From an uncultured Myxococcales bacterium (GTDB taxonomy: Bacteria; Myxococcota_A; Bradymonadia; REDH01): a stretch of DNA of 11,583 bases. How positions within the stretch are numbered: position 1 is the first letter of the stretch; every line of letters begins with the position of its first letter. Of this stretch, positions 1 to 11,583 are shown one piece after another. Made by a program: the position numbers and the translations under genes. Location of the stretch: contig CBDUJZ010000161.1 of assembly GCA_965367675.1 (NCBI GenBank), forward strand, positions 1-11,583, in the 5' to 3' direction. The notes under the pieces were generated by a model that was not told where the DNA came from, searched no databases, and worked only from the letters and a program-made list of their open reading frames with translations.

Positions 1-3000
1 GCGCCATCGGCCGCTTTGCTCCGCTGCCGCTGATGCGCAGACGCCAGCCGCTGGTCGATGTTTCGCAGCACCGGCGCGATCTCCTGCCCCAGGCTCGGCG
101 TCGGCCGGTTCAGGCTCGAGGCGATGGCGTCGAGCTTGGCCAGCAGCGGCCCCGTCCACGCCGATGGGTCCGCCGCCGGCGCCGGTCGACTAGCCACTGC
201 GGCATCGGCAATCGTGGTCTGAATGCCCTGCACACCCTGGATGAGTCCACCCATCGCGCCCGTCATCCGACTCACCGGGTCATCCTCCGCGCCGCCCATC
301 ATCTTGCGACGCGCGAACTCAGCCTTGATGCCCTCCCAACGCGTCTTCTCCTCGGCGGACATCGTGCCGCGCATCTCGGCGAGCTTGAGCAGGTTCTGCT
401 CGGCCCCCACGGTCAGCGTCTGAGACTCGCCCAGGTAGTGGTCCGTGAGCAGCGCCTGCACCTCTTTTTCGTTCATCGCCGGCACGATCTTCTCGGCGAT
501 TTTGTTCATGTTTCGATAGCTGCCCTGGAGCTGGAACTTGGGCTCCGTGCGGTACTCGTCGGCCTGCGCAGCCGAGCGGATGTACTGCAGGTTGACGGCC
601 AGCAGCAGGTCGCGCGCGGCGAACATATGACGCAGCACACCCTGCATCTCGGCGAGCTCCACAGCGCTGTACGCGTGGCTCAGCTCGCTGGTCTGCACCT
701 GCTTGCCCTGCGCCATCTCGACGATGCGATACGTGTCCTCGAGCCCGCGCGCGGCGAGCGGCGCGAGCACCGGGTTCGACGTGAGCGCGTTCTCCACATA
801 GCTCAGCGCGAACTGCTCCTCGCGCCCGTCGAGCACATCGCCCAAGTTGTACGTGTCCGCGCGGTTAGCGAGCATGTCCGGGATTTGAAACTTGTCGCCC
901 GACTCCGTGTACGGGTTGCCCGCCATGACGACGATGAACTTCTTGCCCCGCAGGTCGTACGTCCGCGTCTTGCCGTTCCACACACCCTCGATGCGGCGCG
1001 TGGCGTCGCACAGCGAGATGAACTTCTGCAGGAACTCGGGGTGCGTGTGCTGGATGTCGTCCAGGTACAGCATCACGTTGCTGCCCATCTCGAACGCCAG
1101 GTTCACCTTGAGGACTTCTTGCCGCGCGGTGGCGTTGGGCGCCTCGTCCGGGTCGAGCGAATGCACACCGTGGCCGAGCGACGGGCCGTTGATCTTCATG
1201 AAGACCAAGCCGAGCCGATTGGCCACGTACTCCATGAGCGTGGTCTTACCGTAGCCGGGCGGCGAGATGAGCAGCAGCAGGCCCATCAGGTCGGTGCGTT
1301 TTGCCGCGCCGAGCGCACCGATTTGCTTGGCCAAGTTGTCGCCGATGATCGGCAAATACACTTCGTTAATCAGGCGGTTACGGACGAACGAGCTCATCAC
1401 GCGCGGCATGTACTCGTCGAGCCGCAGGCGCTCCCGTTCGCGCTCCACCAGCGCCTGTCGCATGGCCCGGTACGCCCGGTAGGCCGGCACGCGCTCCCGC
1501 ACGAACTGACGCAGTCGCCCCAAGAACTCATCGAGCCGCAACGACATCGTCTGCGACGCGATCCGAGGGTGTTGCCCCAGCAGACCCTCCACCTTCGCGG
1601 TGAGCGACGCGCTGCTCGTCTCACGCTCCAAACGTGAGCCGGTGAGCAGCAGCGCAGCCGCCTCAGGGACCGCGTGCGCCATGGCGGAGAACGCGCTCCC
1701 CGGCGCGCCAACCAACGCGCGCAGCCACGCCAGCGCCACCTCGACCTGGTCGGCGACGCGGCCCTCCAGCTGGCCCAAGTCGTCTTCCAAAACCGCGCGT
1801 CCGCCGTGGCCATCCAGGTGCTTGTGCAGCCCCTCGACGAGCGCCACCGCGTCCGCGCTCGTCGCGAACCGCGGGCGGTCGTTCATCAGCTCTTCGACCA
1901 GGTACGCGCCGGCGTCATGCGCGTCCTCAACGCGTGGCCAGCTCGCGCCGGGCGAGGCGTCGACCAGCTCTGCATCCTCGACCCACGCCGCGATCGCGGT
2001 GCCAATATCCTGCGCCAGCTCGCGCTGCACTTCGCTCTCGCTGAACGCGTCTCGCACCCGTCGAGCGTTGCGCGCGCGGCGCTCCCAAGCGTCCCGCAGC
2101 TTCGCATTCTCGTCCGCATCCAACACGGCCCAGAACAGACACGCCAGCGCGCGCGGCCCCGCACCAAACCGCAGCAGACCGGCGTGCTGTCGCAGCTGCA
2201 GCACCTTCTGCAAAATCAGCGTCGCGTCGGCGTCATGCAGACCCCGCTCGTAGCCCTCGTCATACCGCTGACCGGCCTCGTCGCGGACCAACTTCGACAG
2301 CCCGTCTGAAGACAGCGCAGCCTCTCGCAGCGACGCCATCGACGCACCGCCGATGCCCCCCTCGGCCGCGAAAAGCAGCGTCGCAGCCAGGTACTCGCCC
2401 CGGTACACCTCGGGCGTCTCCGACACCAAGTTCTGCCCCCAAAACGCGCGCGTCTCCAGGAACTCCGGGTCCGAGATCATCTCGTAGAACCCCGTGCCAC
2501 CCAGGTGCAGCGCCATGGCGCCTTCTTTAGGTACCACGGTCAGGTCCAGCGGCTGCGTGTTCACGCTGAACTTGTGCTTGCCGAGCTTGATCGTGTTCGC
2601 GCCGTCTTCGAACAAATCGGCGCGATCGCGCTGGCCGCGCATGGCGTCCTGACGCGTCGACTTGAGCTTCGAGAGCAGCTCATCGGCTTTGACGCTGTCG
2701 CCCAGATCGCGCAGCTGCTCCGCCACTTGGCGCAGCTTCATCACCATCGGATCAGCGGCAAAATACGCGTTGAGCGCGTCCGCTCCGTCTGCCGCGGCGC
2801 TCCGGCGCGCCACGCTCGACATGATACGCTCCGCCGCTCCGACCAGGCTCTCCACCCGCCGCTGACGCTGCTCCAGCAGAGTCTGCTTCTTGGCCTCGAA
2901 CGCGTCCACGACCTCGCCGCGCTTCACGGCCAGGTCGGTCAGGTACTCGTCGAACTCACTGAAGCGCCCTTCCAACTCTTCGAGCTGCAGCAACAGCCGC

Positions 3001-5183
3001 GACAGCTGCTCGTCGCACTTCTCCGGCGAATCGCTCAGCGACAGACCGCTCTGCACCGTCTGGCCGAACAGCGTGAACTGCGCGCCGAACTCCGCGCGGC
3101 CTTCGCGACCCGCGATCTCCTTGCGGTGCGCTTCCAACGTGGCGCGCACGCGGTTCACCTGACCGAACACCTCGCTCACCCCTTCCAGGATGGTGGTGCG
3201 CGCGGTCGGGTCGTCAACCTCAAGGCCAGCGATGACCTCGCTGAGCACCTCGAGTCCGGTGCCGACCTTGTCGATCTCGTCTCGAATCGCGTTCGCGTCA
3301 GACGTCTTCTCGATCGTCTTGATCGCCGCCTCTTGCTTGGTCAGCGACGCTACGAGCGGGGCCAACGACTCGGCGCCGAGCATGAACTTCACGCACGCGT
3401 GGCTCACCTCGTCGAACTTCGCGACGGTCTGCTCTTCGAGCGCGTCGATGCGCGCCAGGTCCACGTAACGAATGTCGCGCAGCGTGATCAGCTGCCCGCG
3501 GTGCGTCCGCAGTCCAGACAGCGCTTCCATGAAACCTTGCACAGACTTCAGGCTGTCCGGCAGCACGCGGTCCACGGCCTCCACGTGTCTCGCGGAGGCC
3601 TCCTGCAGCGCCACGCTGGCCTGCCGCTGGAGCGCGACCACCTTCTCGAACTCGTCGACGATGAGCTCAGACGTCCGGTTGATGCTCTCCAGCGTCTCCG
3701 CCAGCCCCTCCGCCTCGGGCGACCCGAGCCAGTAGAAGTTGTCGAGCATGCGCCGGTTGGCCGAGATCAGGTCCTCGTACAGCCGCCGCGTCGGCGTCGC
3801 GTTGTCGATCATGCGGGCGATCGACAGCCCCTCCGAGATGCCTCGCACCAGCTCCGGGTTGCCGATGCGCGTGTAAAACGAGTCCTCCGTGGGGGCGCTC
3901 GCCGCGAACTCGGCCGTCACGAACGGCGTGGTCCACACCTGCATCGGGTGCACGCGCGTGGGCTCCTGAATCTCGGAGCGGAACACCACCAGGCGGCCGT
4001 CGTCGAACAGCGAGTAGCCGTTGCACACCAACTGCGCCTGCACCTCTTTGCGGATCAGATTGTACGGCAGCAGCAGGTAGCGGCCCTCGGTGGCCGTGTA
4101 GAACACGTACAGCACGTCTTCGCCGTTGGGCGACTTGACCTGCGCATGGAACTGAAGCCCCGAGGGCGCCTCGCCGAAAATCTTGTGGTCGCCGGACTGC
4201 AGATAATAGCCGCCCGGGAAGATGATGCCGTGCTCTTCCGGCAACTCCAGACACGCGTGACCGATGGCGTCGATGCGCTTCACCGACTGCGCGCGCGGGT
4301 TGTACACAAGGTGCCGCCACACCTCTTCGTTATAGGGGCGCACGCGCACCAAAATGAGCCCGCCAATCTTGGCGTACTCGATGCGCGCGTCGTCCAGCGT
4401 CTGGTTCGCGTCGTTGACCGGCTCAGCGTAAATGCCCTTGCCGTCCTCGGTGTTGTTCTCGATCTTGACCGTCAGGTCGCCGCCCACCGCCTCGACGAAC
4501 AGCTCGTCCAGAATCGACACGTGGGGATGCCGCCCCGCCACATGATCCTCGCGCGTGGTAGCGATCCACGAGAACGAGTGGGAGGCCGAGAACACGTGGT
4601 CGCGCTCACCGCGGTTGTCCACGTATTGCGGCCGCCCGTCCGGCATCACGTTCCAGCGGAACACGCGCAGGTCGCGGTCGCCCTTGCCGTAGCGGAACAC
4701 CGCCAGCAGCTTGCCGTCACGCGCGCGCAGCTGCTCCAACTCCGTCTCGCGATAGTACTTGTACAGCTCGCCGAAGTCCTTTCGGAACGCCGGGTCGGCC
4801 AGGAAACCGCCGGCCGAGGTGTCCATATCACCGACCGGGAACTCGATGCCCTCCGGCGTCTCCTCCATCGTGTGCACGCTGAACACATCGCCCAGCGCCA
4901 CGTCCTGCTTGAGGCCGAGCAACACGTTGTAGCCGAACAGCAAATTGCCGCCCACGTGCAGGATGTCGCGCGGCAGACAGTTGTGCTCCGTGCGGACGCG
5001 GCTCTGCGCGCGCACGGCCAGCTCACTGGAGCCGAACGCTTCGGTGCGGGCGGTGTTCAGCCGCTCCGCGGACGTGGCCAGCGTCTGGCCAAGCGCGACT
5101 AGGCGCGCACGGATTACGTCGTAGTTGCCGGCGTCAATGCCGTCCGGCGACACGCTTCCTTCAACTTCGGGATCGGCGCTCAT
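1..5183 (-). CDS. Giant protein with a C-terminal MoxR/CbbQ-like AAA+ ATPase domain; at least 1727 codons in the window, 3' end runs off the left edge (no stop seen)
   Basis: Translating the minus strand by hand from the ATG at 5183..5181 (MSADPEVEGSV...) gives one open frame all the way to position 1. It is absent from the ORF track only because it has no stop in the window. All other minus ORFs listed in 1-5183 are in the other two frames. An in-frame TAA lies 10 codons upstream (5213..5211). Walker A is ...LLLISPPGYGKTTLMEYV... (plus-strand ccgcccggctacggtaagacc reverse-complemented at ~1240-1262; Lys at about aa 1313). Walker B is ...VMLYLDDIQHTHPEF... (~1052-1075). A MoxR-type segment ...KKFIVVMAGNPYTESGDKFQIPDMLANRADTYNLGD... 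parallels MoxR ...[26 protein letters not shown].... The ~1150 aa N-terminal to the ATPase contain a beta-rich stretch (RVFRWNVMPDG..., GYYLQSGDHKIFGE...) followed by a long helical, coiled-coil-like stretch. A further ~350 aa follow the ATPase and continue out of the window. Confidence 0.85.
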   Translation of the reverse strand, partial: MSADPEVEGSVSPDGIDAGNYDVIRARLVALGQTLATSAERLNTARTEAFGSSELAVRAQSRVRTEHNCLPRDILHVGGNLLFGYNVLLGLKQDVALGDVFSVHTMEETPEGIEFPVGDMDTSAGGFLADPAFRKDFGELYKYYRETELEQLRARDGKLLAVFRYGKGDRDLRVFRWNVMPDGRPQYVDNRGERDHVFSASHSFSWIATTREDHVAGRHPHVSILDELFVEAVGGDLTVKIENNTEDGKGIYAEPVNDANQTLDDARIEYAKIGGLILVRVRPYNEEVWRHLVYNPRAQSVKRIDAIGHACLELPEEHGIIFPGGYYLQSGDHKIFGEAPSGLQFHAQVKSPNGEDVLYVFYTATEGRYLLLPYNLIRKEVQAQLVCNGYSLFDDGRLVVFRSEIQEPTRVHPMQVWTTPFVTAEFAASAPTEDSFYTRIGNPELVRGISEGLSIARMIDNATPTRRLYEDLISANRRMLDNFYWLGSPEAEGLAETLESINRTSELIVDEFEKVVALQRQASVALQEASARHVEAVDRVLPDSLKSVQGFMEALSGLRTHRGQLITLRDIRYVDLARIDALEEQTVAKFDEVSHACVKFMLGAESLAPLVASLTKQEAAIKTIEKTSDANAIRDEIDKVGTGLEVLSEVIAGLEVDDPTARTTILEGVSEVFGQVNRVRATLEAHRKEIAGREGRAEFGAQFTLFGQTVQSGLSLSDSPEKCDEQLSRLLLQLEELEGRFSEFDEYLTDLAVKRGEVVDAFEAKKQTLLEQRQRRVESLVGAAERIMSSVARRSAAADGADALNAYFAADPMVMKLRQVAEQLRDLGDSVKADELLSKLKSTRQDAMRGQRDRADLFEDGANTIKLGKHKFSVNTQPLDLTVVPKEGAMALHLGGTGFYEMISDPEFLETRAFWGQNLVSETPEVYRGEYLAATLLFAAEGGIGGASMASLREAALSSDGLSKLVRDEAGQRYDEGYERGLHDADATLILQKVLQLRQHAGLLRFGAGPRALACLFWAVLDADENAKLRDAWERRARNARRVRDAFSESEVQRELAQDIGTAIAAWVEDAELVDASPGASWPRVEDAHDAGAYLVEELMNDRPRFATSADAVALVEGLHKHLDGHGGRAVLEDDLGQLEGRVADQVEVALAWLRALVGAPGSAFSAMAHAVPEAAALLLTGSRLERETSSASLTAKVEGLLGQHPRIASQTMSLRLDEFLGRLRQFVRERVPAYRAYRAMRQALVERERERLRLDEYMPRVMSSFVRNRLINEVYLPIIGDNLAKQIGALGAAKRTDLMGLLLLISPPGYGKTTLMEYVANRLGLVFMKINGPSLGHGVHSLDPDEAPNATARQEVLKVNLAFEMGSNVMLYLDDIQHTHPEFLQKFISLCDATRRIEGVWNGKTRTYDLRGKKFIVVMAGNPYTESGDKFQIPDMLANRADTYNLGDVLDGREEQFALSYVENALTSNPVLAPLAARGLEDTYRIVEMAQGKQVQTSELSHAYSAVELAEMQGVLRHMFAARDLLLAVNLQYIRSAAQADEYRTEPKFQLQGSYRNMNKIAEKIVPAMNEKEVQALLTDHYLGESQTLTVGAEQNLLKLAEMRGTMSAEEKTRWEGIKAEFARRKMMGGAEDDPVSRMTGAMGGLIQGVQGIQTTIADAAVASRPAPAADPSAWTGPLLAKLDAIASSLNRPTPSLGQEIAPVLRNIDQRLASAHQRQRSKAADG

Positions 5184-5232
5184 CGAGACCTGCTTTCTGC
5201 GCAATAAAAGTTAGCGACCGGGCGTACGCGTC

Positions 5233-5262
5233 CGACGGAGCCCCCATGCGGAGCCCCCGTCG
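5233..5262. repeat. Intergenic structured element: direct repeat CGGAGCCCCC-atg-CGGAGCCCCC flanked by inverted arms CGACGG/CCGTCG
   Basis: Direct repeats at 5236-5245 and 5249-5258. The 6-bp inverted arms are at 5233-5238 and 5257-5262. It lies in the 93-nt gap between the flotillin stop (5277) and the giant ORF start (5183). Confidence 0.4.
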
Positions 5263-5276
5263 AGACGCCTGCGCGC

Positions 5277-7376
5277 TCAGTCGATGCCGAGCTCTTTCGC
5301 CTTCTCCATCAGCGCAGCGAGCTTGGCCGAGTCGACCTCTCCGGACTTGGAGGCGAGCTTGGCGAGCAGCGCCGTCACCGACAGGTTCTTGAGCGTCTCC
5401 GAGTTCTCGGACGCGCCCGCCAGCAGGCCCTTCACGTCGTCGCGCAGGTTCGAATCGCCGTCCAGGTAGCCGCCGAGCACCTTCTGCGCCGTCGGCGAAG
5501 TCTCCATCACGTTGTCCATGGCGTTGCTCACACTCATGGCCTTGACGAACTTGTCGAAGAACTGGCCGTCGCCGCCCACGATCTGGATCTTGGCCTCCTC
5601 GAACGCCTTGCCCATGACCGCCGCTTGGTGCTCCGCCATACGCTCCTGCGTGAGCAGCTGCGCCAGCGCGATCTCCTTCTGTTGCTCCAAACGGATGCGG
5701 TATTCCTCGTGCTCGCGACCCGCGCCGTCCAGCTCGAGCATCGCCTTCGCCTTCTCGCGCAGACCGCTCGCCTCGGCGACCAGTCGCTTCTCGATCGCGT
5801 CGGCCTCGGCCACACCGCGACGCTCGATGGTCTGCGCTTCGGCCTCGTCCACACGAATCCGCGCCATGCCCTTGGCTTCGGTGCCCTCGGCCTCGGCGCT
5901 CATCGTCTCGCGCGTCACCTTAGCCTCGGCCATGCCCTGCTTCTCGATCGCCATCGCGTTGGCTTCCTTGACCTTGACCTCGGCCAGGCCCTGCGCGGCG
6001 ACCTCGGCCTGCACACCCTCGGCCAGGCGAATCTTGCCCTTGGCCAGCGCGTCGGCGGCCTCCAGCTCGGCCTCGGCACCAATGATGCGCTCTTGCGCCT
6101 GGTGCTTGGCGACCTGTTGCGACGCCTCGGCCGCTTTGATCGCCTTGACCAGCTCGGCCTGCGCGTCACCTTCGGCGGTCACAACCTTGGCGTCCTTGTG
6201 ACGCGTCGCGTCCGCCACGAGCCGCAGGTCTTTGATGCGCTCCTCTTCTTCGGCGACGGTCTTGTCGACGGCGATACGCGCGCGCACCACGTCGGCGATC
6301 TCCTTCTTCTCGCGCTCGAGTTCCTTCTCCTTGGCGATGCGCATCAGCTCGACCTCGCGCTCACGCTCGATCTGCTTCAGGTCCTCCGCCTTTTGCACCT
6401 CGACGGTCTCCATCACCACGATACGCTCGCGCTGCTTGGTCGCCACGTCGATGTTGCGCTGCATCTCTTGCTCGCGCTTCTTGACCTCTTCTTGGGCCAC
6501 TTGGCGCGCCAGCTCGGTCTCCTTGGACTCAGAGATCTTGTAGCGGCTCGCCTCGTTCTGCTCGCGGGTCTGCGCCACGTCGATCTCGCGGGCCTTGCGG
6601 GCCTCGGCCTCGGCGCGCTGCTGGTCGTAGCGGAACACAGCCTCGTCGGCGGTCAGGTCCTGCTGACCGATGTCCATCCGCTCTTTCTGCTTCAGCTCGT
6701 TCGTCTGCACGTTCTGCGCCGCGGTCATCTCGGTGATCTTCCGGATGCCCTGCGCGTCGAGAATGTTGGAGGGGTCGAGCCGGTTCAGCGGCGTCTGCTC
6801 CAGGTAGTCGATGGCCGCGTCCTCGAGCACGTAGCCGTTCAGGTCCTTGCCGATGACCGAGATGATGTCGTCTCGGAACTCGTCCCGCTTGGTGTACAAC
6901 TCCTCGAATTGCAGCCGCTTACCGACCGTCTTGAGCGCCTCGGAGAACTTGGCGGCGAACAGCGTCTCGAGCGTGGCGTGGTCCGACGCGCGCTGGCAGC
7001 CGATCGACTGCGCGACCTTGAGCACGTCCTCACCCGTCTTGTTCACCCGAACGAAGAACGTGACCTTGATATCGGCGCGGATGTTGTCCTCGCAGATCAG
7101 GCCGTCCTCGCCGCGTCGGTCGACCTCGATGGTCTTGACGGAGATATCCATGATCTCCGCGCGGTGAATGATGGGCAGCACGGTCGCGCCGGTGAACGTG
7201 ACGGTCGGCTCCGCCTTCATCGTGTTCACGATGAGCGCCTTGCCCTGGTCCACCTTGCGGTAAAACTGAGCGACCATCGCGAGCAGGCCCACGACGAGCA
7301 CAGCCACGACAGCGACGATCAACAGCGCGGCTTGCGCGAGAGTGCTTAGAGCGAAGAAGAAGATGGGTGCAGACAT
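5277..7376 (-). CDS. Flotillin family protein (SPFH/band-7 domain, YqiK/FloT-like), 699 aa
   Basis: ATG at 7376..7374 with a GAGG motif ~10 nt upstream on the minus strand. N-terminal hydrophobic membrane anchor (MSAPIFFFALSTLAQAALLIVAVVAVLVVGLLAMV). SPFH core: ...TVLPIIHRAEIMDISVKTIEVDRRGEDGLICEDNIRADIKVTFFVRVNKTGEDVLKVAQSIG.... Then a long charged coiled-coil with Glu/Ala-rich 'EA repeat' region (EAELEAADALAKGKIRLAEGVQAEVAAQG...) and a C-terminal tail. The overall architecture matches what I recall of E. coli YqiK and B. subtilis FloT. Stop TGA at 5279..5277. Confidence 0.9.
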   Translation of the reverse strand: MSAPIFFFALSTLAQAALLIVAVVAVLVVGLLAMVAQFYRKVDQGKALIVNTMKAEPTVTFTGATVLPIIHRAEIMDISVKTIEVDRRGEDGLICEDNIRADIKVTFFVRVNKTGEDVLKVAQSIGCQRASDHATLETLFAAKFSEALKTVGKRLQFEELYTKRDEFRDDIISVIGKDLNGYVLEDAAIDYLEQTPLNRLDPSNILDAQGIRKITEMTAAQNVQTNELKQKERMDIGQQDLTADEAVFRYDQQRAEAEARKAREIDVAQTREQNEASRYKISESKETELARQVAQEEVKKREQEMQRNIDVATKQRERIVVMETVEVQKAEDLKQIEREREVELMRIAKEKELEREKKEIADVVRARIAVDKTVAEEEERIKDLRLVADATRHKDAKVVTAEGDAQAELVKAIKAAEASQQVAKHQAQERIIGAEAELEAADALAKGKIRLAEGVQAEVAAQGLAEVKVKEANAMAIEKQGMAEAKVTRETMSAEAEGTEAKGMARIRVDEAEAQTIERRGVAEADAIEKRLVAEASGLREKAKAMLELDGAGREHEEYRIRLEQQKEIALAQLLTQERMAEHQAAVMGKAFEEAKIQIVGGDGQFFDKFVKAMSVSNAMDNVMETSPTAQKVLGGYLDGDSNLRDDVKGLLAGASENSETLKNLSVTALLAKLASKSGEVDSAKLAALMEKAKELGID

Positions 7377-7466
7377 GATTCGCGACCTCGTTTGGGAGAG
7401 CGAAGGCGAGCGGACTAGCGGCTCGACTCGGAACGTAAGTGTTTGTTTTCAAGAACGATTCGGGAC

Positions 7467-7478
7467 AGCCCGCGGGCT
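7467..7478. promoter_or_regulatory. Perfect 12-bp GC palindrome AGCCCGCGGGCT immediately 3' of the nfeD-like stop codon, followed on the minus strand by an AT-rich patch containing TTGAAA
   Basis: Self-complementary 12-mer at 7467-7478. The nfeD-like stop is 7484..7482. Plus 7438-7456 (gtgtttgttttcaagaacg) is unusually AT-rich for this sequence; its reverse complement contains TTGAAA. Confidence 0.3.
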
Positions 7479-7481
7479 ATC

Positions 7482-8327
7482 TCACGACTTCCGGGGGCTC
7501 GACCGGCTTTGCACCGGCGCCGTCTCAGCGGCCTCGACGCCGGCGTCACGGACAATGGCATCCAGGGCGGCCAGCTCGGCCTCGAGATCCCCGTCGCCAT
7601 CCGACGCCACAAAGTGGTCCATCGACTCGATCTGGTAGGCTTCTTCGCCCGCCACATACTCGACCACAAGCGCGGCATCTCCACGCTTGAGGGTGTTGGG
7701 TTCGGCGCACCGCACCTCGATGAGCAGCCCGGCGCCGCCATCGCGGACCTCGGCCTGGCCAAACGTCTCGGTCACGCGGCCGGTGCGTACCTCGCAGACC
7801 ACGCCCACGGAGTCGGCGCGCGACGCGGCCTCCTGCGTCTCGAACAGCTTACCGAGCGGACGAACGCTGCGCTTGGTGAGGGGCACGGCGATGCCGATGG
7901 AGAGCAGGAATGTGACCGACGCGATGACCGATGCGGGAAGCGCGAGCTCGGCGCGGGCCGCGAAGTGCATGCACAGGAAGCTGGCGATCCAGCACCAGAG
8001 CACCAGCACGGAGAGCACGACCGTCGCGGGCGCTTTGTCGAGCGCCAGCGCGTGCACCACATGCCACGTAAAGCTGTGGGAGCCTTGGCCGCTGCCGACG
8101 CCCTCGGCACCATCGAGCGCACCGTCGGCGCCCTCCAATGCACCGTCCAAAGCGCCGTCGACGGCACCATCCACGCCACCGTCCAGCACGCCGTCCAGGT
8201 CGAAATCCAGCGACTCGACACCGATGGCGCCCGCGATGACGAACAGCCAGTAGAGGACGATCAGCCCCATCAGAACCGTGAAGATTCCGGTCGGGAGTGT
8301 CAGCATCTCTGTGAGCAGCGGGCTCAT
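7482..8327 (-). CDS. NfeD-like / YqiJ-like inner-membrane protein (N-terminal TM helices, C-terminal OB-fold), ~281 aa
   Basis: ATG at 8327..8325; the track's first 'M' at 8330 is a TTG. Two hydrophobic segments (GIFTVLMGLIVLYWLFVIAGAIG; TVVLSVLVLWCWIASFLCM... VIASVTFLLSIGIAV). The C-terminal beta-rich segment ...GVVCEVRTGRVTETFGQAEVRDGGAGLLIEVRCAEPNTLKRGDAALVVEY... is typical of the NfeD short-form OB-fold. It sits directly upstream of a flotillin gene, as in yqiJ-yqiK and nfeD-floT pairs. Stop TGA at 7484..7482. Confidence 0.8.
   Translation of the reverse strand: MSPLLTEMLTLPTGIFTVLMGLIVLYWLFVIAGAIGVESLDFDLDGVLDGGVDGAVDGALDGALEGADGALDGAEGVGSGQGSHSFTWHVVHALALDKAPATVVLSVLVLWCWIASFLCMHFAARAELALPASVIASVTFLLSIGIAVPLTKRSVRPLGKLFETQEAASRADSVGVVCEVRTGRVTETFGQAEVRDGGAGLLIEVRCAEPNTLKRGDAALVVEYVAGEEAYQIESMDHFVASDGDGDLEAELAALDAIVRDAGVEAAETAPVQSRSSPRKS
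8100..8210 (-). repeat. Period-12 nt imperfect tandem repeat (about 8 units) inside the nfeD-like CDS, encoding (x-h-D-G)n
   Basis: Plus-strand units ggcaccatcgag / cgcaccgtcggc / gccctccaatgc / accgtccaaagc / gccgtcgacggc / accatccacgcc / accgtccagcac / gccgtccaggtc. They translate on the minus strand to DLDGVLDGGVDGAVDGALDGALEGADGALDGAEG, sitting between TM1 and TM2 of the NfeD-like protein. Confidence 0.55.
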
Positions 8328-8381
8328 CAAGGTCCAGGAAGAAGCGGAGAACGAAACGGGGGAGCGGTGACCGGGTCGAGA

Positions 8382-8786
8382 TTACTCGGGCGTGCGGTGA
8401 TCGATGGAGACCGAGTTGATGCAGAAGCGCACGCCCGTCTCGGTGGGGCCGTCGTTGAACACGTGACCCAGGTGAGCGTCGCAGCTGGCGCAGGTGACCT
8501 CGGTGCGCGTCATGCCGTGGCTGACGTCTTCGATGAACTTCACCGAGCCCTCGACCGCGCGGTCGAACGAAGGCCAACCGCAGTGCGCATCAAACTTGGT
8601 GTCCGACGTAAACAGCAGCGCGTCGCAGCAGATGCAGCGGTACGTGCCGTCCTCGAACTGGTTCCAGTACTTGCCGGTAAACGGCCGCTCGGTCGCCGCG
8701 TTCTGCGTGACTTCGAATGCGAGGTCGCCCAGACGTTCGCGCAACGCGGACGTGGCGGACGGAATGGAACGGGTGTCGTCACTCAT
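8382..8786 (-). CDS. msrB: Peptide-methionine (R)-S-oxide reductase MsrB, 134 aa
   Basis: Internal ATG at 8786..8784, preceded by a strong SD: AAGGAG (plus 8793-8798 reverse-complemented) with a 6-nt spacer. The track's 215-aa version extends upstream without support. Both zinc CxxC pairs are present ([11 protein letters not shown] and [13 protein letters not shown]). The resolving-Cys motif HCGWPSF and the catalytic-Cys motif [11 protein letters not shown] are the SelR/MsrB hallmarks. Stop TAA at 8384..8382. Confidence 0.92.
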
Positions 8787-8954
8787 CGGATGCTCCTTTG
8801 TTCTTGAGGTGACAGAATACATGGGCGCGGCCGCGATCGCACTCGTGGCAGCCCCCACGCGCAACGGCTCTACGGGCCAAGGGATTCGCGGCGTGAGAGG
8901 GTTGTGTGCGGGGGACATGTTGGCCTCGGTGATCCGCGGTTGCCCTCCTACCTC

Positions 8955-8969
8955 GCAACGTCCGTGCCA
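8955..8969 (-). promoter_or_regulatory. Candidate sigma-54 (RpoN) -24/-12 promoter driving the msrB-nfeD-flotillin-AAA+ gene string
   Basis: The reverse complement of plus 8951-8970 is TTGGCACGGACGTTGCGAGG, i.e. TGGCACG-N4-TTGC. This matches the RpoN consensus TGGCAC-N5-TTGC with exact GG/GC spacing. Predicted TSS is near plus 8943, giving a ~157-nt leader before the msrB ATG at 8786. It lies in the divergent intergenic region shared with a GAFTGA-containing bEBP gene. Confidence 0.55.
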
Positions 8970-9029
8970 AACTGCGCATCCCCGCGTTTGCTGGGGAAAC
9001 CCCGCCGAAGGATGCTGCGGACCACACAA

Positions 9030-9040
9030 CGTGTTACACG
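9030..9040. promoter_or_regulatory. 11-bp palindrome CGTGTtACACG, a candidate enhancer (UAS) or autoregulatory operator
   Basis: Perfect inverted repeat with 5-bp arms around a central T. It is centred ~92 bp upstream of the predicted sigma-54 TSS and ~35 bp upstream of the activator's own ATG. A related half-site GTCACAC recurs at 9056-9062. Confidence 0.3.
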
Positions 9041-9070
9041 GAATAACCGAAACCCGTCACACTGCGTAAC

Positions 9071-10870
9071 ATGCTTCAATCCAACGTATTGCTCCGGGAC
9101 GTGCTCCCCATCGCGCGCACGCACACCGACGGCGCGGTCGCCGGACATGTGAAGGCCGAGCTGTCGAGTCGGCTGGAGTTGGACGGGGTGCCGGTGGATA
9201 CGGTCGACGCGTTCTGCCAGGCGTTCGAGGTGTTCTCCCGCGCGCTGATCTCGGCGTCGATCCCGACCATCTATGGCCCGGAGTTCGCGGAGACCCTGGC
9301 CAGCATTCTATTCGGGCGCGACCCGCTGCTCACGCTCCTGAGCCCGCAGCTGCCCAACCGCCGCATCCTGATCGTGGGCGAGCGCGGCACTGGAAAGGAG
9401 TCGGTCGCCCGCGTGCTCAGCGCCGGCCTCGCCGCCTTTGGCGGCGGCCGCCCGGTGGTGGCGGTCAACGCGGCCGCGCTCCCGGACACGCTGCTCGAGT
9501 CGACGCTGTTCGGGCACGTGCGGGGTGCGTTCACCGGCGCGACTCGGGCGCGCACGGGGCTCATGTCGGAGCTGCATCCCGGCGGCGTGTTGTTCTTCGA
9601 CGAGGCGGGCGAAGCGTCGCCCGCGCTGCAGGCCAAGCTGCTGCGGGTGTTCCAGACCGGCGAGTACGCCCCCGTGGGCGCGCCCGAGGCACCGTCGCGG
9701 GCCGACTATCACGTGGTCGCCGCCACCAACGCCCCGCTCAAGGCGCTGCAGCTCGGCACCGCCATGCGCGCGGACCTGTTCGACCGCCTCGCCGCGCCGC
9801 TGATCGAGCTGCCGCCGCTGCGCACGTTGCTGCACGACCAAACGCGGGGCCGCGCCATCTTCCAGTGTCTGGCGATGGGCGTGATTCGGGAACTCGGCGC
9901 GACCGGGCGGACCGGCGCCGGCACGCCATCTGTGGTCCGCCGCGCGGGCGACCGGCGGGAGATCAACTTTGAGCTGTGGGCGACCCCGCGCGCCGCCCGA
10001 ATCGCCCGGAGCGTTCAAGAAGGCACCCAGGGCTACGCGTGGCCCGGCAACCTGCGCGAGGCGGCGCAGCGCATCCGTCAAACGCTGTTCATGGGCTCGG
10101 CGGCGCTCAGACCGACGAACCATCGCGCGGCAAGCGCGGCGCCCAAACCACCCGCAAACGCCATCGTGTTGACGGTGCCGGAGTCCGGCACGTTGAAGAC
10201 ACAATTGGAGGCCGCCGAGCGCCAACTGTACGCCCGCGCGGCCACGCAGCACGAGTCGATCATCGCGGTCGCCGATGCGCTCGGGGTCGCCCGGCAAACG
10301 GCATCCCGGCGCCTGAGCTACTTCGAGATCCCGGCGCCTGGTAGTTCGACCGATACGCCGACGAGCACGCCCCACGCCACCGTCCCGATGCCCACCCGAA
10401 GGCCGCTCGGCACGCCCAACGCCACCAACCACCCGGGCTCGGACGCCATGGGTCATCGCCCGCCGGACGCGTCCGTGTCGGCAGCGGTGTTCTCGCCGTT
10501 CACCGCGCCGCGCATCTCCCGCCGCTTGCTGGCGATTATGGAGCGCAGCGCGCCGCAACCGGACAACCTGACGGCAGCCGTGGTCATGCACGCCGAGGCG
10601 CTGCGCGCGGCGGTCGGCGACTATCCGTTTGTGGACCTCAAGCTCGTTTCGTCCATCGAGCACACGCTGCTGGAGCTCATCAACGACATCCTGCCGTCGC
10701 ACTCTGAACCCCACGTCCGGCTGGTGGCCGCTGCGGTCGCCTACTTTGTGGAGGTCGACGACGAGGACCACGACCTGTCGTCCGCGATCGGGCTGGATGA
10801 CGACGTGCGGGTGGTGAACGAGGTGGCCCGTGTGTTGGGGCGCGACGACCTGGAGATCCGCGTGGAGTGA
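9071..10870 (+). CDS. Sigma-54-dependent transcriptional activator (bEBP) with atypical architecture: no receiver/sensor N-domain, AAA+ sigma-54 domain, Fis-type HTH, then a P/T/S-rich linker and an extra acidic C-terminal domain
   Basis: ATG at 9071; in-frame TAA at 9044-9046; no obvious SD. Walker A is ILIVGERGTGKESVARVL (9361-9400). The GAFTGA loop is ESTLFGHVRGAFTGATRARTG (GAFTGA at nt 9524-9541). Walker B is GVLFFDEAGEASPALQAKLLRVFQTGEYAPVG. Sensor I is HVVAATNAPL. R-finger region is DLFDRLAAPLIELPPLR. Sensor II is YAWPGNLREAAQRI. The Fis-like HTH is ...HESIIAVADALGVARQTASRRLSYFEI at about aa 385-425. After it come a low-complexity stretch (PAPGSSTDTPTSTPHATVPMPTRRPLGTPNATNHPGSD) and a ~120-aa domain ending ...YFVEVDDEDHDLSSAIGLDDDVRVVNEVARVLGRDDLEIRVE. 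Only ~65 aa precede the AAA+ domain. Confidence 0.88.
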   Translation: MLQSNVLLRDVLPIARTHTDGAVAGHVKAELSSRLELDGVPVDTVDAFCQAFEVFSRALISASIPTIYGPEFAETLASILFGRDPLLTLLSPQLPNRRILIVGERGTGKESVARVLSAGLAAFGGGRPVVAVNAAALPDTLLESTLFGHVRGAFTGATRARTGLMSELHPGGVLFFDEAGEASPALQAKLLRVFQTGEYAPVGAPEAPSRADYHVVAATNAPLKALQLGTAMRADLFDRLAAPLIELPPLRTLLHDQTRGRAIFQCLAMGVIRELGATGRTGAGTPSVVRRAGDRREINFELWATPRAARIARSVQEGTQGYAWPGNLREAAQRIRQTLFMGSAALRPTNHRAASAAPKPPANAIVLTVPESGTLKTQLEAAERQLYARAATQHESIIAVADALGVARQTASRRLSYFEIPAPGSSTDTPTSTPHATVPMPTRRPLGTPNATNHPGSDAMGHRPPDASVSAAVFSPFTAPRISRRLLAIMERSAPQPDNLTAAVVMHAEALRAAVGDYPFVDLKLVSSIEHTLLELINDILPSHSEPHVRLVAAAVAYFVEVDDEDHDLSSAIGLDDDVRVVNEVARVLGRDDLEIRVE

Positions 10871-10894
10871 GGCGCACCAGCCGGACAGTCGCGC

Positions 10895-11583
10895 CTATCC
10901 GGCCACGCGCCACACCTCGGCGAACGGCGTCTGCGCGTAGGTCCCGCTGAACTCCACCACGTCGTCGGCCGTGAACCACAGGCCATCCGCGCCCGGGCCG
11001 TCGTAGGACACCATCGTCCGCAGGTTGCCCGACCGGTCGAACGTGCGCGTGGTGTAGTCATCCAGCTCATCGTCGCCGGTGCCCCAAACGCCGTCCGCGC
11101 CCGGTCCGTCCAGCGTCGCATCGAAACGCAGGCCGCCATTTTCGTCGATGTCGCGAATGCGACCGAAGCCGATCACGTCGTCCGCGGTAAACGGGATCCC
11201 GTCGTCGCCGAGCGCAACGGTGTGCCGTTCGATGTACCGGGTGGCGGACGTGTACTCCCACGCGATCGCGCCACCGCCGCCCACGAGGAACGTGTCGTCG
11301 TCGGTGAGCCAGATGCCGTCGGCGCCTGGATCGCTGCTGATGCCAAACCGGATGACGCGCCCTTCATCGTCGAGCTCCTGCCAGTCGACGCGCGAAATCG
11401 TGTCGTCCCCGGGGCTGTTCCCGCAGTCCGAGGTATCCCAGGTCTCGTCGGGCCCCCAATCGCTGTGGTGCACGGTGCCTTCAATAGACTCCCCTACCGG
11501 TCCAGCATCGGCGTCGGCGACGGTATCCGGCGAGGCGTCGCCGGGGACATCTAGGTCGCCGGTGTCGCCACCGATCACGTCGG
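10895..11583 (-). CDS. Asp/Gly/Trp-rich tandem-repeat protein, probably secreted or surface and Ca-binding-like; C-terminal 229 codons only (5' end outside window)
   Basis: Minus-strand frame stays open to the right window edge; the 'M' at 11578 in the track is an internal GTG. A ~35-40 aa repeat recurs at least four times: DPGADGIWLTDDD / GDDGIPFTADD / DGPGADGVWGTGDDELDD / DGPGADGLWFTADD. One EF-hand-like DxDxNG loop is present (DIDENGG). Stop TAG at 10897..10895. Convergent with the bEBP gene, 24 nt apart. Confidence 0.6.
   Translation of the reverse strand, partial: DVIGGDTGDLDVPGDASPDTVADADAGPVGESIEGTVHHSDWGPDETWDTSDCGNSPGDDTISRVDWQELDDEGRVIRFGISSDPGADGIWLTDDDTFLVGGGGAIAWEYTSATRYIERHTVALGDDGIPFTADDVIGFGRIRDIDENGGLRFDATLDGPGADGVWGTGDDELDDYTTRTFDRSGNLRTMVSYDGPGADGLWFTADDVVEFSGTYAQTPFAEVWRVAG

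Follow-up and report, generated by a model that had tools for sequence, protein, structure and literature searches.

The locus described here lies within an 11,583-nt stretch of DNA from an uncultured Myxococcales bacterium (contig CBDUJZ010000161.1, positions 1 to 11,583 of the forward strand; hereafter 'the window') and centres on msrB, a gene for a methionine sulfoxide reductase that stands directly ahead of genes for a flotillin-type membrane scaffold. The genes of the proposed operon are read on the minus strand of the window, in the order sigma-54 promoter-like site, msrB, YqiJ/NfeD-like gene, YqiK-type flotillin gene and giant gene, the last three being referred to below as the trio; all genes lie on the same strand, with intergenic gaps of 54, 105 and 93 nt along the operon. 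A sigma-54 activator is encoded divergently, on the plus strand. Comparisons drew on 80 genome loci, whose flotillins are 48–61% identical to that of the window, and on ~35 metagenome loci, mostly distant relatives, obtained by a scan with a four-sequence alignment of YqiJ-like proteins; the nearest relatives were retrieved one by one, giving nine related lineages with the window counted among them. Loci are given by number, L001 being the window's source contig, an 18-kb metagenome contig (ENA ERZ25043461, NODE_2081) to which the window runs in reverse complement.

msrB itself (8786–8382) is a complete open reading frame (ORF) for 134 aa. Its product matched Pfam SelR (PF01641; E = 2.4e-48, 163 bits against a cutoff of 24.9) and NCBIfam TIGR00357 (173 bits, cutoff 113), and its closest solved relative is the MsrB of Protein Data Bank (PDB) entry 6sym (E = 9e-43). 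A ribosome-binding site, AAGGAG, is found 7 nt 5′ of the ATG, in agreement with an earlier note on this DNA (the original prediction), which had described a complete msrB with a strong Shine–Dalgarno sequence. An in-frame ATG at 8918 would lengthen the protein by 44 aa, but this extension is missing in all relatives and the 134-aa start therefore stands. The zinc motifs are two CxxC pairs (C51/C54 and C99/C102), the resolving cysteine is Cys69 (in HCGWPSF) and the catalytic cysteine Cys122 (in RFCINS). Neither a hydrophobic or membrane segment nor an extra domain was seen in the MsrB sequence; lacking such a segment, the protein is therefore taken to be cytoplasmic. msrB is accordingly predicted to encode an ordinary cytoplasmic zinc-type two-cysteine methionine-R-sulfoxide reductase, its activity being likewise a prediction. 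With the canonical stand-alone bacterial MsrB (6sym, for example) it shares fold family, the four zinc cysteines, the catalytic and resolving cysteines and length, the sole difference being its genomic context. Identity to MsrBs of clade-mates is 60–69%, compared with 64% to housekeeping MsrBs of Acidimicrobiia (Actinobacteria), and of the three closest MsrBs with long contigs, two have unrelated gene neighbourhoods. A specialised MsrB subfamily was ruled out on these grounds, housekeeping enzymes of unrelated phyla being equally similar, and the protein is, judged by its sequence, of housekeeping type.

Upstream of msrB, a −24/−12 sigma-54 promoter motif (TGGCACGGACGTTGC, 8969–8955, minus strand) points at the gene from within the 284-nt space that separates it from the activator gene, ~100 nt from the start of the latter. 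This is the sole exact match to TGGCAC-N5-TTGC in the window, with 0.03 expected from shuffles; motifs with one mismatch are common (0.86 expected per window). The motif and the YqiJ-like gene 54 nt downstream of msrB bear out the earlier placement of msrB between a sigma-54 promoter and an nfeD-like gene. The motif lies 169 nt from the msrB start, and transcription would begin near 8943, giving a 5′ leader of ~157 nt (8943–8787, minus strand) that contains the ATG at 8918. A riboswitch or known RNA in this leader was rejected, there being no Rfam match (none at E ≤ 1 anywhere in the window) and an unremarkable fold (z −0.7). Two relatives carry an equivalent promoter, TGGCATGACCCTTGC at 7649 in L082 and an exact TGGCACGTCACTTGC at 32–46 in L132; in the alignment of the window and L082 intergenic regions the promoter core is the best-conserved block, and in both relatives the core is kept while the flanking intergenic DNA diverges. 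A functional sigma-54 promoter upstream of msrB is very probable.

The divergent gene (9071–10870, plus strand) encodes a 599-aa bacterial enhancer-binding protein with Pfam matches to Sigma54_activat (E = 2.5e-39) and HTH_50, its NCBIfam matches being limited to the AAA+ core. A short N-terminal region precedes the AAA+ domain (Walker A GERGTGK; GAFTGA at aa 152–157, window 9524–9541), which is followed by a helix-turn-helix (HTH) and a C-terminal domain of ~180 aa. Its ortholog in L082 shows 56% identity from end to end, the unusual C-terminal domain included. This post-HTH domain (aa 421–599; window 10331–10870, plus strand) is unusual in the family, and a conserved acidic motif, EVDDEDHDLxSxIGLDDDxRVxNEVAxVLGRDDL, forms its end. 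Conservation of the domain in L082 is 56%; in L085 (7447–7617) the final ~57 residues are all that is left of it, and the activator clusters at 90% identity with a 52-aa protein from a contig of 313 kb. A close known parallel is the PspF/sigma-54/pspABCDE system, where a divergent activator without a receiver domain similarly faces a sigma-54 promoter driving a membrane-stress module, and the AAA+ core of the window activator matches PspF models. However, the window has no PspA/B/C, and its activator bears the extra post-HTH domain and falls far below the PspF cutoffs (152 versus 444 bits). PADLOC returned only generic P-loop/AAA+ matches (IetA, E = 0.0025; the RtcR/PspF AAA+ core for the activator), and a defence-system reading was set aside.

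In seven of the nine related lineages (flotillin 64–78% identical), the gene immediately preceding the YqiJ-like gene is msrB. Alongside the window, with its gap of 54 nt between msrB and the YqiJ-like gene, the linked lineages are L082/L084 (flotillin 78% identical, gap 141 nt), L085 (76%, 129 nt), L086/L087/L094 (74%, ~133 nt), L131 (70%, 189 nt), L089, which bears the NCBI name Bradymonadia (69%, 125 nt), and L090/L091 (69%, −8 nt, the msrB stop overlapping the YqiJ-like start). The contexts upstream of this block differ, comprising the activator with or without a gene for a 230-aa protein, an FAD-oxidase/Fe-S gene, or a divergent TMEM43 gene, and the genes downstream of the giant gene vary between linked lineages; as these outer flanks change, the part that persists is the block running from msrB to the giant gene. 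Wider synteny, of BipA and MacB/FtsX ABC genes, is common to some members of the clade. In the sub-branch without an activator the TMEM43-family gene is always divergent from msrB (L089 6130–7284, L090 7411–8565, L131 1139–2335). The identities of MsrB, YqiJ-like protein and flotillin order the relatives alike, and because the three proteins agree in this ranking they suggest one ancestral acquisition of msrB by the trio. A single distant locus, L028, has an msrB two genes upstream of the trio, the sole case among the 80 genome loci (~0.05 expected by chance, counting any two upstream same-strand slots in 115 loci); this MsrB belongs to another type, with 47% identity and no resolving cysteine. 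No paper describing msrB within a flotillin operon was found in a literature search.

The sigma-54 elements are distributed more narrowly still. A motif scan of the linked lineages found neither activator nor sigma-54 motif in L086, L089, L090 and L131, and L085 keeps a 261-aa membrane-protein homolog together with a 57-codon remnant of the activator C terminus, with no promoter. Promoter and activator thus appear to belong to one sub-branch (window, L082 and L132) and not to flotillin operons generally. Sigma-54 control of the trio at large was rejected, the full set of loci giving no more than a few unrelated near-matches ahead of the YqiJ-like gene. One related metagenome group (L096–L102, L129) has TGGCACCATCCTCGC, or the recurring TGGCACCATC(C/G)TCGC, 25 nt upstream of that gene, and L124 (5907) has TGGCAAAGGGCTTGC 80 nt upstream; these near-matches may represent independent sigma-54 control of the trio, or coding sequence.

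Between the promoter position and msrB, L082 (7791–8483), L085 (7710–8495) and L132 (180–875) carry a gene for a multi-pass membrane protein of 230–261 aa, the copy of the 230-aa gene in L132 being 74% identical. The protein has no family match, has conserved cysteine motifs (SSCLSG and GGCATVVG) and is missing in the window. A remnant of the gene was looked for in the window msrB leader and none was found; the window lineage appears to have lost it, putting msrB straight behind the promoter. L132, which was found from the MsrB side, comprises the promoter, the 230-aa gene, msrB, the first ~100 codons of the YqiJ-like gene and unrelated YcaO/nitroreductase genes. It was considered as an independent unit of 230-aa gene and msrB, an idea rejected on the presence of the truncated YqiJ-like gene, and it appears to be a rearranged or chimeric derivative of an L082-type locus. 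Directly after the truncated gene (L132 1991–5898) come a small ORF with a Cys-rich run (GGCCTTCCCCCCCIHS) and then the YcaO and nitroreductase genes, a stretch that looks like a thiazole/oxazole-modified peptide cluster, either inserted or mis-joined.

Downstream, the 54-nt gap (8381–8328) between msrB and the YqiJ-like gene is less structured than its shuffles (fold z +1.4), and a consensus scan, of low power at 65% G+C, found neither a sigma-70 promoter nor a terminator within it; the same scan was also blank upstream of msrB in four related loci that must have promoters. The original prediction that this gap has no recognisable promoter therefore stands at the sensitivity of that scan. No terminator-like site was found after msrB in any relative scanned, by a scan that is again weak at this G+C content. 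A conserved element in the gap was considered and rejected, the gaps of relatives giving no meaningful alignment. Because the genes share a strand, the gap is short and unstructured and no terminator was found, msrB is likely to be co-transcribed with the downstream scaffold genes in this organism.

A G+C-rich stem-loop (5282–5216, minus strand; minimum free energy −52 kcal/mol, z −1.9) directly follows the flotillin stop, within the 93-nt gap ahead of the giant gene. Comparable hairpins follow the flotillin gene in L082 (12070–12170), L086 (5535–5680) and L093 (12076–12180), their position being kept and their sequence not; that of L086 is a very long nested palindrome (−84 kcal/mol, z −7.3). 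Such a hairpin may be an attenuator of the giant gene or a stabiliser of the upstream mRNA.

The first gene of the trio (8327–7482, minus strand) encodes a short NfeD-like membrane protein of the YqiJ/YuaF type (281 aa), and the second (7376–5277, minus strand) a YqiK-type flotillin of 699 aa. Direct sequence searches of Pfam, NCBIfam and PDB gave no match for the YqiJ-like protein, and those of Pfam, Band_7 included, and PDB gave none for the flotillin, for which there was a weak NCBIfam FloT match (E = 1e-5). The two identities are drawn instead from hhalign, in which a profile of the flotillin homologs matched E. coli YqiK over the SPFH region (99.7% probability, E = 2.5e-27) and a profile of the YqiJ-like homologs matched E. 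coli YqiJ (91.9% probability, E = 6.9e-7); among the flotillin homologs are some that JGI calls YqiK and that bear PF01145. The earlier labels 'nfeD-like' and 'flotillin' are thus upheld by profile comparison and not by any direct Pfam match. The flotillin consists of an N-terminal membrane anchor (a hydrophobic segment), SPFH and a long coiled coil rich in E, A and K; in the YqiJ-like protein, three hydrophobic segments are accompanied by an acidic (D/E-G-A-x)n linker and a predicted C-terminal OB-like domain, and with few exceptions among the loci its gene precedes that of the flotillin. The acidic linker, between the first and second transmembrane (TM) segments (aa 42–80; window 8090–8205, minus strand; 12-nt periodic repeats at 8128–8197), is highly variable in length among relatives, L086 (2333–3391) having ~100 extra residues.

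The giant gene (5183–1, minus strand) leaves the window after the first 1,727 codons of a 1,946-aa protein and is complete on the source contig (L001 6402–12242). Pfam searches identified DUF3686 (E = 1.3e-194), DUF7902 and a C-terminal AAA+ domain. Two plus-strand ORFs, 33–1637 and 2505–5102, were discarded as antisense shadows of this gene, with no family match in Pfam or NCBIfam. The giant gene follows the flotillin gene in nearly all of ~115 loci, from at least five phyla; the trio as a whole is present in nearly all of the 80 genome loci (Myxococcota, Actinobacteria, Proteobacteria, Planctomycetota and Acidobacteriota) and also in the ~35 metagenome loci. A literature search found no paper mentioning DUF3686. 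Beyond the window, a gene for a 375-aa HEAT/DNA_alkylation-like protein (L001 12229–13356) overlaps the stop of the giant gene by 14 nt; other genes take its position in relatives, and a homolog lies near the L066 trio on the opposite strand.

This core is already known, though not experimentally characterised: a Band-7/flotillin, a YqiJ/YuaF three-TM protein and a novel AAA+ ATPase have been described as a widespread operon in a comparative-genomics study of PSP, which treats the trio only briefly (PMC11237479). The operon of that study has the same three genes in the same order, but its description is without msrB, sigma-54 promoter or activator, and some of its versions have PspA and a CesT/Tir-like chaperone, both absent in the window. 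The operons yqiJ-yqiK of E. coli and yuaF-floT-yuaI of B. subtilis likewise have a short NfeD-type gene immediately upstream of the flotillin gene; they differ in comprising two or three genes under sigma-70 or ECF control, with neither giant ATPase nor msrB. The window flotillin is also longer (699 versus 553 aa in the known system), the SPFH part alone aligning. Against this background the msrB-flotillin arrangement appears to be a narrow, lineage-specific elaboration of a known and widespread scaffold operon, a finding that is real but modest.

Functional evidence on related systems comes from two species. The B. subtilis nfeD-floT operon, yuaFGI, is induced by envelope-active antibiotics via sigma-W (PMC3503724). 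In S. aureus, mutants in floA and in nfeD show sensitivity to H2O2, and unfolded proteins are stabilised by the FloA–NfeD complex (PMC11222466); this is the same pairing of flotillin and NfeD, tied by experiment to survival under H2O2, although FloA is of another, shorter flotillin type and Msr is not mentioned. The role of FloA–NfeD under H2O2 supplies a rationale for co-inducing a protein-repair enzyme, and the suggestion in the original prediction that the module responds to oxidative or envelope damage is a reasonable one, by analogy, because it fits that work.

Taken together, the evidence moderately favours msrB as the promoter-proximal gene of a sigma-54-dependent operon that includes the YqiJ/NfeD-like gene, the YqiK-type flotillin gene and probably the giant DUF3686 AAA+ ATPase gene. 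On this account the divergently encoded activator would sense a signal and open the sigma-54 promoter at 8969–8955, whereupon RNA polymerase would copy the ~157-nt leader and then msrB and continue across the 54-nt gap, which is unstructured, to the genes of the membrane scaffold, the hairpin after the flotillin gene probably reducing expression of the giant ATPase. MsrB would act as an accessory repair enzyme, a methionine-R-sulfoxide reductase recycled by thioredoxin, and repair of oxidised proteins would be induced jointly with stabilisation of membrane proteins under stress. The module, widespread and already in place, would have received msrB at its 5′ end in the ancestor of a single clade of Myxococcota, probably related to Bradymonadia. 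The best reading of the locus is therefore a stress-inducible membrane and protein damage-control operon that gained msrB as an accessory gene. What the analysis shows are the gene identities, the promoter motif with its conservation, and the gene order with its distribution among lineages; co-transcription, the inducing signal and any functional cooperation of MsrB with the scaffold are inferences. The original prediction of co-expression is supported by gene order, promoter, gap, the seven linked lineages and the 8-nt overlap, and limited by the confinement of the linkage to a narrow clade.

Several observations weigh against such an operon, and some of them would also suit two adjacent, independent units, in which sigma-54 drives msrB alone (ancestrally the 230-aa gene and msrB), the trio keeps its own promoter and adjacency is inherited synteny. 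msrB is not near the trio in 79 of the 80 genome loci or in any of the ~35 metagenome loci, and is missing even from the nearer relatives L092 (flotillin 73% identical) and L093 (64%); with the trio standing without msrB in more than 100 other lineages, the trio must therefore have its own promoter there. The sigma-54 promoter of L082 and L132 stands immediately ahead of the 230-aa gene, with msrB next, and is tied to these first. The gaps of 125–189 nt in relatives could hold promoters, and that of L131 is strongly structured (z −3.7), so that some lineages may partly uncouple msrB from the next gene. In the window the YqiJ-like gene has a weak ribosome-binding site, an internal promoter might lie inside the 3′ end of msrB, and promoter and terminator scans are weak in this G+C range. 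The msrB of the L086 lineage (L086 1744–2199, L087, L094 1–224) is moreover frameshifted beside an intact trio, right after the second CxxC, with loss of the AHLGHVF...CINS part and its catalytic cysteine; because the identical frameshift occurs in three assemblies from different projects, a real pseudogene is suggested. Two units would also suit the BipA and MacB/FtsX synteny, by which the region may simply be conserved. Two separate units are nonetheless unlikely. The window gap is only 54 nt and unstructured, msrB and the YqiJ-like gene share 8 nt in L090/L091, and the scan showed no terminator-like site behind msrB in any of the relatives. Even where activator, promoter and 230-aa gene have all been lost, msrB remains joined to the trio.

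Another alternative is that MsrB is a dedicated partner of the scaffold, repairing methionine sulfoxide in flotillin, YqiJ or the giant ATPase (a redox switch) or in client proteins of a flotillin–NfeD cage, the whole module being a specialised system for oxidative membrane-protein damage. The retention of the linkage in seven lineages despite changing flanks, the second msrB, of a different type, upstream of the L028 trio and the protection of S. aureus under H2O2 by FloA–NfeD, which holds unfolded proteins (PMC11222466), would all suit such a partnership. It is improbable all the same. The partner proteins have an unremarkable methionine content, with no rise in the linked clade: flotillin methionine spans 1.6–2.9% across the clade, compared with a mean of 1.7% (sd 0.4) in 120 homologs, the window flotillin alone being slightly high (2.9%), and the YqiJ-like and giant proteins are unexceptional, and methionine enrichment was accordingly rejected as evidence of a redox switch. 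MsrB is, furthermore, as close to housekeeping MsrBs of unrelated phyla as to those of clade-mates, it has no membrane segment or extra domain, one lineage whose trio is intact carries a frameshifted copy of its gene, and the linkage is missing from almost all trio carriers. The original prediction that oxidised methionines in the flotillin or giant protein act as a regulatory switch is unsupported, given the ordinary methionine content, the frameshifted msrB and the housekeeping type of MsrB; a dedicated MsrB–scaffold partnership, or a methionine-oxidation switch, is possible and found no support in this analysis. Equally doubtful is an extension by analogy in which activator, promoter, MsrB and trio would constitute a dedicated Psp-like response to oxidative membrane-protein damage, the flotillin/NfeD cage holding oxidatively unfolded proteins, MsrB repairing them on site, the giant ATPase remodelling or extracting them and a component of the module controlling the activator as PspA does PspF.

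A chance sigma-54 motif, with msrB driven by an unrecognised sigma-70 or ECF-type promoter, would accord with the mere 10 specified bases of the motif, the commonness of one-mismatch matches and its absence from four of the seven linked lineages, but is highly improbable given an exact match of such low expectation, in the correct orientation, ~100 nt from the divergent gene of a GAFTGA-bearing activator and at the same position in L082 and L132.

The value of the preferred reading, that of a sigma-54-dependent operon with msrB at its head, is limited by a linkage that is lineage-specific, by organisms that are uncultured and by co-expression that is no more than probable. Bacterial flotillin/NfeD modules, especially the version with a giant DUF3686 AAA+ protein, are still without a defined physiological role, and the position of such a module behind msrB and under a dedicated sigma-54 activator is a concrete hint that its role may lie in oxidative or envelope protein damage. 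Made into a reporter, the regulator–promoter pair could help to identify the signal that induces the module.

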